A DNA stretch of 4,017 nt, taken from a virus. Taxonomy: Duplodnaviria; Heunggongvirae; Uroviricota; Caudoviricetes. The translations under genes and the position numbers were made by a program. Under the pieces are notes generated by a model, which worked only from the letters and a program-made list of their open reading frames with translations, was not told the origin of the DNA and ran no database searches. Location of the stretch: IMG/VR virus record IMGVR_UViG_2695420427_000018; one strand, written 5' to 3'. Positions 1,606 to 3,989 of the stretch are shown in pieces; position 1 is the stretch's first letter; the number at the start of each line of letters is the position of its first letter.

Positions 1606-2805
1606 ATGCTGTTTGTGCTTATTCTAAGCAACCGGGCAGCATCATACGGGGCAATTATGGCCGCATTACCATACATGCAACTGTACATAGCTGATTACCT
1701 GGCTGACACCATGCATTTGTCAGCAGAGGAGCACGGCGCGTATTTGTTGCTGATGTTCAATTACTGGCAAACAGGAAAGCCAATACCCAAAAACAGGTTG
1801 GCAAAAATTGCCCGTCTGACTAACGAGCGATGGGTTGATGTTGAACCATCCTTGCGGGAGTTTTTTTGTGATAACGGCGACGAATGGATGCATCTTCGGA
1901 TTGAGGAAGATCTGGCATCTGTCAGAGAAAAATTAACCAAAAAATCAGCCGCAGGAAAAGCATCTGTTCAGGCCAGAAGAAGCAGAAAGGAAGCAGATGT
2001 TCAAACAAAACAAGAGAGAAATTTAACAGGTGTTCAAACAGATGTTGGAGTGATGTTCGAACATGATGCCAACACAAAGGCAACTAATAAAGATACAGAT
2101 AAAGATCTAAAAACAGATCTAACCCATCCCAAACCCTTCCCTTCCGGAAGGGAGTTTCGGGATTTTGTGGCTGGAGTGCTTGAGGGGAGATTATCTGGCG
2201 GTACTGCAGCGGAATTTTGTAATTCTGCGGTGGTTGCGTTGCAGGCTGCTGGCCTGGATGTCTGTCGTGAGTATCCGGTGCCAGAGCGTGGTGACGGTTG
2301 CGGAGGGCGGATTGATATCGTCGTGACTGACAGGAACGGTGTCCGGTGTGGGAGCGAGCTTGACCGAAATTCTCCGCGACAGAAATCACTGCTCAAAATC
2401 GGTGCTGTTGAAACCGGGATATGTGTCTTGCGGCGCAGTGATATCGCAAGGCACACCGAGCAGGGAATTCTGGTTATCGGTGGGGCTGTTCGCCAGAAAA
2501 AATTTGACCCGTTGTCAGTTGATCTGCCCGACTGGTTGCCAGAAACACTCTGGCATGAGTGGGTCCAGTTCAGGCAGGCATTGCGAAAACCGATTCGAAC
2601 GGAGCAGGGCGCTAACGGGGCGATACGGGAACTGGAAAAATTCCGTCAGCAGGGTTTTACACCTGAGCAGGTGATTCGACACAGCATCGCCAATGAATAC
2701 CAGGGTCTGTTCGCGCCGAAAGGTGTTCGGCCTGAGACGTTGCTCCGACAGGTTAACACCGTCTCGTTGCCGGACAGTGCGATCCCGCCAGGCTTCAGGG
2801 GGTAA
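1606..2805 (+). CDS. ydaU: Replication initiation/primosome-like protein: DUF1376-type N-terminus, low-complexity linker, ~115-aa central insertion, DnaT-like C-terminus (YdaU-like)
   Basis: Long ORF in operon position before a DnaC-like gene. The N-terminal motif LPYMQLYIADYLADTMHLSAEEHGAYLLLMFNYWQTGKPIPKNRLAKIA is YdaU/DUF1376-like. The C-terminus ...LLRQVNTVSLPDSAIPPGFRG resembles the C-terminal tail of E. coli DnaT as I recall it. The true start is probably ATG 1657 (GGGG at 1647-1650, protein starting MAALPYMQLY) rather than 1606, which has a poor RBS and a hydrophobic junk-like leader. The stop at 2803-2805 is firm. Confidence 0.85.
   Translation: MLFVLILSNRAASYGAIMAALPYMQLYIADYLADTMHLSAEEHGAYLLLMFNYWQTGKPIPKNRLAKIARLTNERWVDVEPSLREFFCDNGDEWMHLRIEEDLASVREKLTKKSAAGKASVQARRSRKEADVQTKQERNLTGVQTDVGVMFEHDANTKATNKDTDKDLKTDLTHPKPFPSGREFRDFVAGVLEGRLSGGTAAEFCNSAVVALQAAGLDVCREYPVPERGDGCGGRIDIVVTDRNGVRCGSELDRNSPRQKSLLKIGAVETGICVLRRSDIARHTEQGILVIGGAVRQKKFDPLSVDLPDWLPETLWHEWVQFRQALRKPIRTEQGANGAIRELEKFRQQGFTPEQVIRHSIANEYQGLFAPKGVRPETLLRQVNTVSLPDSAIPPGFRG
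1996..2063. repeat. Iteron-like direct repeats GrTGTTCrAACA (3 copies plus one partial) inside the linker-coding region; candidate replication origin element
   Basis: Read directly: GATGTTCAAACA 1996-2007, GGTGTTCAAACA 2029-2040, GATGTTCGAACA 2052-2063 (which contains the 10-bp perfect palindrome tgttcgaaca at 2054-2063), and partial gatgttgg 2041-2048. They are followed by an AT-rich tract 2070-2125 with two AGATCT palindromes (2103-2108 and 2115-2120). The origin role is inferred by analogy to lambda ori lying inside gene O. Confidence 0.35.
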
Positions 2806-2811
2806 CAGACC

Positions 2812-3558
2812 ATGAAAAATATTGCGACAGGAGGCGTTCTGGAGCGTATCCGCAGACTGACCCCACCACATGTAACCGCCCCATTCAGAACGGTTGCGGA
2901 GTGGCGCGAGTGGCAACTTGCTGAAGGCCAGAAACGTTGCGAGGAGATCAACCGCCTGAATCGTCAGTTGCGGGTGGAAAAAATCCTGAACCGCTCCGGC
3001 ATCCAGCCGTTGCACCGGAAGTGTTCGTTTGCGAATTACCGGGCGCAGAACGACGGTCAGCGACATGCACTGAGTCAGGCGAAATCCATAGCTGACGAAC
3101 TGATGACAGGCTGTACGAATTTTGTGTTCAGCGGTAAGCCCGGCACCGGAAAAAATCATCTTGCAGACGCGATTGGCAACCGGCTGATGGCGAAGGGGCG
3201 TAGCGTGATTATCGTCACCGTGTCCGATGTCATGAGCGTGTTGCATGAGAGCTACGACAACGGCAAATCCGGTGAAAAATTTTTACAGGAGCTTTGTGGT
3301 GTTGACCTGCTGGTCCTGGATGAAATTGGCATGCAGCGGGATACGAAAAACGAGCAGGTGGTACTGAACCAGATTGTTGATCGCCGGACGGCATCGTTAC
3401 GCGGTGTGGGGATGCTGACAAATATTAACCATGCAGCGATGAATACACTTCTCGGCGAGCGGGTGATGGATCGCATGGTCATGAACGGCGGGCGCTGGGT
3501 GAATTTTAACTGGGAGAGCTGGCGTCCGAATGTTAGCCATTCGAGGGTTGTTAAGTAG
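2812..3558 (+). CDS. ydaV: DnaC-family AAA+ helicase loader (prophage paralog), 248 aa
   Basis: Walker A FSGKPGTGKNHLADAIG (Asn in the P-loop as in E. coli DnaC), Walker B DLLVLDEIG, and DnaC-like segments NRSGIQPLHRKCSFANY, LNQIVDRR, GMLTNIN and LLGERVMDRM. The start at 2812 is 7 nt after the ydaU-like stop. Confidence 0.92.
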   Translation: MKNIATGGVLERIRRLTPPHVTAPFRTVAEWREWQLAEGQKRCEEINRLNRQLRVEKILNRSGIQPLHRKCSFANYRAQNDGQRHALSQAKSIADELMTGCTNFVFSGKPGTGKNHLADAIGNRLMAKGRSVIIVTVSDVMSVLHESYDNGKSGEKFLQELCGVDLLVLDEIGMQRDTKNEQVVLNQIVDRRTASLRGVGMLTNINHAAMNTLLGERVMDRMVMNGGRWVNFNWESWRPNVSHSRVVK

Positions 3559-3572
3559 TTTCAGGAGGATTT

Positions 3573-3989
3573 ATGGCGAAACCTTTTACTCCCGAACAGC
3601 GGGAAGAACTGAAGACGCGAATTGTGGAACTCGTGCATCAGGACGGTCGGGTCACGATTCGGCAGTTGTCAGATGAAACAGGTATCAGTCGTGCGTCTGT
3701 CGGTCGCTTATGCATGGAACTGGTCGCAAGTGGTGATGTATATAATTCTGGCTACGGGGTATTTCCCTCTGAACAGGCTCATAAAGACTGGCAAAACGCC
3801 CGCAAAAAGCTATCGAGGGTAAAGGTGAAGAAACCGGTTGTGGTTGATCCTGACCTTATCTGGTCATTACCAGACGGAGAAATACGCCGCTACGACAGGC
3901 GCCTGAATATAATCTGTCGCGAGTGCCGGAAGAGCGAAGCTATGAGGTGTACTGGCAATAGCGGACACTACCATTTGTTCTTTTTTTAA
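3573..3989 (+). CDS. Small winged-helix (DeoR/MarR-like HTH) protein with C-terminal Cys/His cluster, 138 aa; function unknown
   Basis: Strong RBS AGGAGG 3563-3568 with a 4-nt spacer to ATG 3573. The N-terminus ELKTRIVELVHQDGRVTIRQLSDETGISRASVGRLCMELVASGDV looks like a winged-helix HTH. The C-terminus CRECRKSEAMRCTGNSGHYH has a C-x2-C-x7-C-x6-H-x-H arrangement. The ORF ends in LFFF at a T-run (3978-3987), so the C-terminus may be non-native. It may correspond to the ydaW position of Rac but I cannot confirm. Confidence 0.65.
   Translation: MAKPFTPEQREELKTRIVELVHQDGRVTIRQLSDETGISRASVGRLCMELVASGDVYNSGYGVFPSEQAHKDWQNARKKLSRVKVKKPVVVDPDLIWSLPDGEIRRYDRRLNIICRECRKSEAMRCTGNSGHYHLFFF

Follow-up and report, generated by a model that had tools for sequence, protein, structure and literature searches.

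We analysed a 4,017-nt stretch of viral DNA (Caudoviricetes; IMG/VR virus record IMGVR_UViG_2695420427_000018), hereafter the window, with a focus on a candidate replication origin that lies inside its ydaU-like initiator gene. The open reading frame (ORF) list together with Pfam and PHROG matches identifies the window as the immunity and replication module of a Rac-type lambdoid prophage with the synteny racR/ydaS/ydaT/ydaU/ydaV. The ydaU-like gene occupies positions 1606–2805 of the plus strand and encodes a protein of 399 residues, which consists of an N-terminal DUF1376 domain (Pfam E 7e-25), a linker that bears the repeats described below, an extra middle domain and a DnaT-like C-terminal domain. 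Directly downstream, at 2812–3558 on the plus strand, a ydaV-like gene encodes a DnaC/IstB-type AAA+ helicase loader, which matches Pfam IstB_IS21 and Bac_DnaA as well as PHROG 50 (DnaC-like helicase loader; E 7e-82). The ydaU-like and ydaV-like proteins would form a pair of origin binder and helicase recruiter. When a 342-nt in-frame segment found only in the window is left out, the gene is 95.7% identical to ydaU of the Escherichia coli K-12 Rac prophage, and about 1500 of 5426 complete E. coli genomes contain a close relative of it.

A repeat search revealed one family of 12-mers with three copies on the plus strand, GATGTTCAAACA at 1996–2007 (repeat 1), GGTGTTCAAACA at 2029–2040 (repeat 2) and GATGTTCGAACA at 2052–2063 (repeat 4). 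A degenerate copy, GATGTTGGAGTG at 2041–2052 on the same strand (repeat 3), was read from the sequence; it retains GATGTT and aligns with GGTGTT of homologues. The start-to-start spacings of 33, 12 and 11 bp are each close to multiples of a helical turn, which places the repeats on approximately the same face of the helix. Thus, the repeats, the partial copy and the helical phasing reported in the initial annotation are present, and the same holds for its AT-rich stretch with two AGATCT sites, which we locate at 2082–2121. The core TGTTCGAACA is palindromic, so that the locus contains several dyad-symmetric sites (three full and one partial), as expected of a lambda-type origin, and ATGTTCGAACAT at 2053–2064 forms a perfect palindrome of 12 bp, centred within an imperfect one of 32 bp. 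Repeat 1 adjoins an 11-nt stretch that is confined to the E. coli Rac clade, while repeat 2 is the homologue of the family-invariant core AAC..GTTC.AAC (invariant columns 69–83 of a nine-sequence alignment). In K-12 Rac the repeats are found at the same positions, and its allele of repeat 4, GGTGTTTGAACA, has the core of repeats 1 and 2 in inverted orientation. The substitution rate between the window and K-12 is the same in the repeat region as in the rest of the N-terminal part of the gene, about 3%, and this comparison is therefore uninformative at such a distance. None of 300 dinucleotide-preserving shuffles of the window produced a three-copy 12-mer family (at most one mismatch, within 70 nt). 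When up to two mismatches were allowed, the motif gave six matches against 1.39 expected. A two-mismatch match, GATGTTGAACCA at 1837–1848 on the plus strand, is a weak outlying repeat-like site that includes GTTGAAC, and a motif scan found no repeat copy in the promoter region.

The repeats are followed by an AT-rich tract of low stability at 2082–2121 on the plus strand, a candidate unwinding element. Its GC content is 22.5%. Among the 40-mers of the ydaU ORF it has the lowest stability, and among those of the whole window the second lowest; its free energy of −41.9 compares with a window mean of −55.0 and a standard deviation of 4.1, a difference of about three standard deviations. The tract reads AAT AAA GAT ACA GAT AAA GAT CTA AAA ACA GAT CTA and has a 6-nt periodicity of GATNNA. 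AGATCT occurs twice, at 2103–2108 and 2115–2120, and is reportedly the ATP-DnaA 6-mer consensus of Speck and Messer. The unwinding element of oriC is made of 13-mers (GATCTnTTnTTTT), and on the minus strand the sequence at 2119–2107, GATCTGTTTTTAG, fits the oriC R 13-mer GATCTCTTATTAG at every specified consensus position, with two mismatches. The tract is also where E. coli alleles change partners. Homology breakpoints between Rac-SA53, K-12 and two other E. coli allele classes (H16; H17/H18) fall at 2096, 2100, 2112 and 2118, all within the tract, which indicates that the candidate origin region doubles as a module joint, as it does in lambda.

Conservation was assessed in 42 loci that encode relatives of the N-terminal half of the protein (contigs from one genome per species) and in five bona fide phages, with positions counted from the conserved Met of MAALPYMQ (window 1657). 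About 30 homologues, which range from Enterobacteriaceae to Pseudomonas, Azotobacter and Moraxella phages, carry related dyad motifs in the corresponding position. The motifs AACGNNCGTT and GTTSAAC are concentrated at +345 to +400 and form another cluster further upstream, at +165 to +200. For AACGNNCGTT, 25 non-redundant loci yield 29 occurrences in an 81-nt linker interval compared with 21 in the other 143.6 kb, a 98-fold enrichment, and its linker matches are divided between frame 0 (13 matches) and frame 2 (15 matches). The corresponding enrichment is 55-fold for GTTSAAC and 39-fold for GTTNNAAC. Many loci carry 11-bp tandem units that are read in two or three frames. A Pseudomonas locus, for example, has AACGAACGTTGG ACGGACGTTGG ACGAACGTTG read in three frames, and AAC GAC CGT TCA ACG ACC GTT CAA (NDRSTTVQ) is shared by Rahnella, Pseudomonas phage UFJF_PfDIW6 (four units) and Moraxella phage Mcat18. 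In the nine-sequence alignment, which extends from E. coli to the Moraxella phage, only the core AAC..GTTC.AAC is invariant and the flanks vary. The site TGTTCAACA of Citrobacter braakii is read CST and the site TGTTCAAACA of the window is read VQT, so that a difference of 1 nt within a conserved DNA site has shifted the local frame between the two. Moraxella phage Mcat18, the N-domain of which is 31% identical to that of the window, carries an identical AACGACCGTTCAACGACCGTTCAA (24-nt repeat). The DUF1376 gene is the sole constant neighbour of the DNA motif, as the immunity genes and the downstream partners differ among loci.

Nearly all loci contain, beyond the repeats, an (ACAGAT)n tract that is read TDTD, and outside Enterobacteriaceae this tract lacks GATC. 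Codon choice within it is fixed: Thr is encoded by ACA in 66 of 66 cases, compared with 17% elsewhere in the same genes, and Asp by GAT in 78 of 78, compared with 44%. This fixation was found in all 24 loci that bear the tract, including those from genomes of 57–66% GC (Azotobacter, at 66% GC, Frateuria and Pseudomonas). By this comparison, the AT-rich tract of the window represents the family-wide (ACAGAT)n in its enterobacterial form, which has partly decayed. The upstream motif cluster overlaps the coding sequence of the predicted recognition helix, NERWxDVExxL (NERWVDVEPSL in the window, 1822–1854), and codons are strongly biased there as well (AAC 18/18, CGT 14/21, GTT 17/21, GAA 15/17 and TTG 18/27). 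The outlying site GATGTTGAACCA is the sole remnant of this second cluster in the window. We note that the segment predicted to read the repeats is itself encoded by repeat-like DNA.

Some members of the family have a different repeat. In three loci with a T5orf172 (GIY-YIG-like) insert (L028, L029 and L033) the usual motifs are absent and at least four copies of GTAGCTACGG, a palindrome unlike the main-type repeats, are read in two frames and are followed by the same ACAGAT tract. The N-domains of this subfamily are 91–94% identical to those of the other type over residues 1–54, and the identity is only 38–46% over residues 55–67, the predicted recognition helix, and 38–62% over residues 68–80, the predicted wing. 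Repeats were also seen in more distant DUF1376 phages: Acetobacter phage phiAX1 (L052, 1810–1892) has four copies of ..TGCAAA.. at spacings of 23, 23 and 11 bp, and Azospirillum phage Cd (L051, 1698–1719) has TGGMCCGGTTC twice at 11 bp. These may represent further specificity types.

An AlphaFold model of the N-domain with a predicted local distance difference test (pLDDT) score of 90.3 contains helices at residues 23–39, 45–51 and 56–67, a β-hairpin at 71–78 and a long helix at 80–114. This arrangement is suggestive of a winged-helix topology, in which residues 56–67 would take the position of the recognition helix, and the top PDB matches in Foldseek, none of them significant, are all winged-helix proteins (a MepR-DNA complex, the Rio2 N-domain and the MerB N-domain). 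Pfam finds only DUF1376 in the N-domain, and the initiator is not a homologue of lambda O (Phage_rep_O). The C-terminal 93 residues (2524–2805) are homologous to the C-terminal domain of E. coli DnaT (PDB 2ru8, E 2e-4) and end in the identical IPPGFRG; this domain of the host primosomal protein binds single-stranded DNA, and other family members match Pfam DnaT. The homology suggests that the phage initiator mimics DnaT and so recruits DnaB and DnaC-type proteins. The repeats lie between the end of the modelled N-domain (long helix, about 1999) and the start of the DnaT-like domain (about 2524), and hence in the interdomain linker.

The extra middle domain is encoded in frame at 2119–2496 of the plus strand, as delimited by the alignment gap relative to K-12 ydaU and by PHROG 1347. 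It comprises the 342 nt absent from K-12 and begins right after the AT-rich tract, so that it adjoins the candidate origin and lies outside it. The domain is rare in E. coli, being found in only two of 5426 complete genomes, and in FDAARGOS_944 the NCBI annotation pipeline PGAP splits the gene into two 'pseudogene' pieces, but the ORF is intact. A Salmonella protein of 392 residues has the same architecture. Representative clusters with the PHROG 1347 domain number 241; in most of them it occupies the middle of proteins of 300–470 residues, many of which are initiator-like and one of which carries a lambda-O N-domain. The RIDIVV...ELD sequence of the domain and an α-β-β-β-α-β order suggest a restriction-endonuclease-like fold; the model of the domain (pLDDT 52) was too poor for a fold search. 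Linkers of other YdaU-family proteins hold nuclease-type inserts of the T5orf172/MUG113 (GIY-YIG-like) or HNH type, as seen at L028 3025–4044, L029 3025–4077 and L033 3004–4101 and in proteins P0122, P0130 and P0163. The origin-bearing linker thus seems to be a repeated landing site for nuclease-type domains.

We propose that the element is probably the vegetative replication origin of a Rac-type prophage, located inside its initiator gene, and the counterpart of oriJ of K-12 Rac. This reading is based on the anatomy of the locus, the parallel with lambda, the initiator and loader context, the co-variation of the repeats with the predicted helix and wing, and the existence of oriJ. In the mechanism that we envisage, the winged-helix-like N-domain of YdaU would bind to the repeats in oligomeric form, along a single face of the DNA, and binding would bend and stress the DNA such that the adjacent GATNNA/(ACAGAT)n tract at 2082–2121 opens. 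The DnaT-like C-domain and the DnaC-like loader YdaV would then bring host DnaB to the opened strands, while transcription from a promoter on the ydaS side would pass through the site as it does in lambda. The conservation of its DNA would also make the element a joint for the exchange of N- and C-terminal initiator modules between phages.

Several explanations that involve no DNA-level function have to be weighed against this. The initial annotation had considered that the repeats merely encode a repetitive linker rich in K, E, T and D, and indeed repeats 1 and 2 encode DVQT and GVQT in frame 0 and the linker is of low complexity. Repeat 4, unlike these, is read in the +2 frame (MFEH), the reading frame of homologous DNA sites varies from species to species, the motifs show dyad symmetry, and none of 1000 protein-preserving permutations of synonymous codons gave a three-copy 12-mer family. 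The frame shift of repeat 4, the permutation result and the frame of the Citrobacter site lead us to reject the peptide explanation, to which we attach hardly any credence. When we asked, as had been proposed at the outset, whether the nucleotide repeats are conserved beyond what the amino acid sequence requires, the answer was favourable, as the frames differ and the Mcat18 repeat is identical at 31% N-domain identity. For the hexamer tract (ACAGAT)n/GATNNA alone, one might suppose a microsatellite made by slippage that serves as a flexible TDTD linker and has no function as DNA. Its copy number does range from one to nine units among loci, as slippage would give, and it encodes a plausible flexible acidic linker, but the same unit with the same rare codons recurs in 24 of 24 loci from gamma- and beta-proteobacterial hosts of 47–66% GC. 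Moreover, the peptide repeat has decayed in Enterobacteriaceae (NKDTDKDLKTDL), yet the 6-nt GAT phase and the AT-richness of the tract are retained, and we consider the microsatellite explanation distinctly improbable. The palindromes could alternatively act as mRNA structure, for instance in translational pausing or mRNA stability, and the RNA fold of 1985–2130 has a z-score of −2.8, with two of 200 shuffles folding as well. Such a z-score is, however, expected of any set of DNA palindromes, the family keeps the sequence without compensatory changes, and palindromes of 9–10 nt are too short for hairpins on their own. Rfam had no match for the region, a promoter and terminator scan revealed nothing relevant in it, and a role in the mRNA is very improbable. 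The comparison of homologues shows instead that the repeats and the AT-rich tract are under DNA-level selection across the whole DUF1376/YdaU family, and a DNA-level functional element is in our view established about as well as sequence analysis can establish one.

The function of this element is a separate question, and a number of points count against its being an origin. The main caveat is that the N-domain of Mcat18 is very diverged, including its predicted recognition helix, and yet its repeat is identical; a simple rule relating recognition helix to repeat type therefore fails, and another protein may bind the repeats. The winged-helix assignment is suggestive only, since the best Foldseek match has an E value of 0.06. 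The repeats are short (10–12 bp) and number three or four, compared with four 18-bp sites in lambda. Across the window neither the 13-mer-like matches nor the GATC count is above chance, and no DnaA box was found in 1000–2650, even with one mismatch. The p-values of the motif enrichment are inflated because the relatedness of the loci was ignored, although the effect is still very large. In the literature on oriJ, ydaU, DUF1376 and Rac iterons we found no sequence-level placement of oriJ, and the primers 'framing oriJ' of PMC3945230 amplify 155 bp of ydaV (K-12 ydaV, L001 3622–3776; about 3069–3225 of the window), some 660 bp (660–885 bp) downstream of the repeats. This ydaV segment has no repeat structure, and we therefore treat the primers as a copy-number probe and not as a map of the origin. 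K-12 Rac has been described as replication-defective in recent papers, no origin is annotated here in any phage or genome record examined, and a plasmid search gave only 14 matches, mostly prophages in large replicons, among which no small replicon attests to autonomous replication. It is from the sequence that we infer origin activity, protein binding and unwinding. The motifs might also act in cis in another way, either as an operator or roadblock, bound by the initiator or by a host factor, for ydaU/ydaV expression, or as a conserved joint for module exchange. The allele breakpoints within the AT-rich tract (2096, 2100, 2112 and 2118) are in line with a joint, the identical motif in Mcat18 despite its diverged N-domain would fit a conserved host factor, and DnaA boxes are absent nearby. 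A recombination joint, however, requires only a conserved stretch and not phased dyad repeats beside the least stable DNA, and in lambda, too, origin and joints coincide. The lack of any motif copy in the promoter region also counts against these roles. In addition, subfamilies switch all copies together, from CGTT..AACG to TGTT..AACA or GTAGCTAC, a pattern better explained by a co-evolving phage protein than by an unchanging host factor. We regard such other cis-acting roles as unlikely, though not negligible, and a vegetative origin as the probable function of the element.

The remaining features of the window belong to the immunity region and to the flanks of the replication genes. A RacR-like helix-turn-helix (HTH) repressor is encoded on the minus strand at 416–835, and is followed by genes for a YdaS-like HTH protein (932–1174) and YdaT (1171–1593); a DUF977 protein is encoded downstream of the ydaV-like gene at 3573–3989. 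By eye, two palindromes, TCACGAATCGTGA and AACACAAGGTGTGTT, are visible at 848–860 and 893–907 in the divergent intergenic region between the racR-like and ydaS-like genes and are candidate operators. Just downstream of the racR-like gene, at 368–384 on the minus strand, a hairpin GCCCGC-TGATA-GCGGGC followed by a T run, also noticed by eye, resembles an intrinsic terminator. A 9+2+9 palindrome, TATCACTTA TT TAAGTGATA, is located at 35–54 within the least stable DNA of the window.

The most interesting aspect of the element is its family-wide dual coding. Stated in full, the whole DUF1376/YdaU initiator family would carry its origin in its own gene, with a DNA signal that is older and better conserved than the protein, a second cluster in the codons of the recognition helix, and a spot that repeatedly gains nuclease-type domains (HNH, T5orf172/GIY-YIG-like and the middle domain of the window). 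We advance this broad reading tentatively, as a serious possibility that falls somewhat short of what we would call probable. If it is true, the linker motifs NDRSTxV and TDTDTD are by-products of overlapping 11-bp origin repeats and of a hexamer unwinding tract, and the family represents an undescribed and widely distributed class of origins with unusually deep dual coding. Parts of the linker in these proteins are conserved owing to the DNA and not to the peptide. Annotators should note that codon-level conservation and one pseudogene call at this locus stem from an overlapping DNA signal and from module exchange, and not from constraint on the protein. The analysis also provides a testable sequence-level location for the origin of Rac-type prophages and, by extension, for oriJ, and it suggests a rule for phages with DUF1376 initiators, namely to look about 350 nt into the gene for phased 11-bp dyads followed by (ACAGAT)n.

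One of the closest known systems is K-12 Rac. Its origin oriJ is reportedly the subject of studies by Diaz and Pritchard in 1978, Diaz et al. in 1979 and Potrykus et al. in 2000. Rac has been described as having an active origin, oriJ (PMC3945230), and the candidate origin of the window is probably its equivalent, as indicated by the shared racR/ydaS/ydaT/ydaU/ydaV synteny, the near-identity of ydaU outside the insert and the repeats at the same positions. The window differs from K-12 Rac in the 342-nt extra domain after the AT-rich tract and in repeat 4, which is palindromic and not inverted. With E. coli oriC the element shares the R 13-mer-like match and the two AGATCT sites, whereas DnaA R-boxes are lacking and GATC is not enriched. 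A DnaA-dependent origin of the oriC type was considered and rejected on the lack of R-boxes and the chance level of the 13-mer matches, and we claim no involvement of DnaA.

The iteron origins of theta plasmids (pSC101, F, P1, R6K and RK2) have iterons of 17–22 bp that lie outside the rep gene, usually together with DnaA boxes. The element resembles them in its helix-phased direct repeats beside an AT-rich unwinding element and in its initiator, which is winged-helix there and predicted to be so here; it differs in that DnaA boxes, usual in the plasmids, are absent.

In the comparison with ori-lambda, the lambda-like layout suggested in the initial annotation was upheld. The repeats extend from +340 to +407 here, as counted from the conserved Met at 1657, and the iterons from +348 to +432 of O, the lambda record having four annotated O-binding iterons at 39034–39118 and recombination joints at 39157 and 39165. 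In both, dyad-symmetric repeats lie within the initiator ORF, between an origin-binding N-domain (predicted here) and a partner-binding C-domain, and an AT-rich region is next to them. Rightward transcription passes through the site in lambda and would do so here, the following gene brings the host helicase (presumably so here), and recombination joints lie just after the repeats. The differences concern the components. The repeats of the window are 10–12 bp long and spaced at 11–12 (33) bp, compared with 18 bp at 20–24 bp in lambda; the partner is an AAA+ loader of the DnaC/IstB type and not lambda P, and the C-domain is DnaT-like. The repeat sequence is kept across very distant hosts and is not phage-specific. 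Taken with these likenesses and differences, the element would be lambda-ori-like in its working while standing outside the O/ori-lambda lineage.

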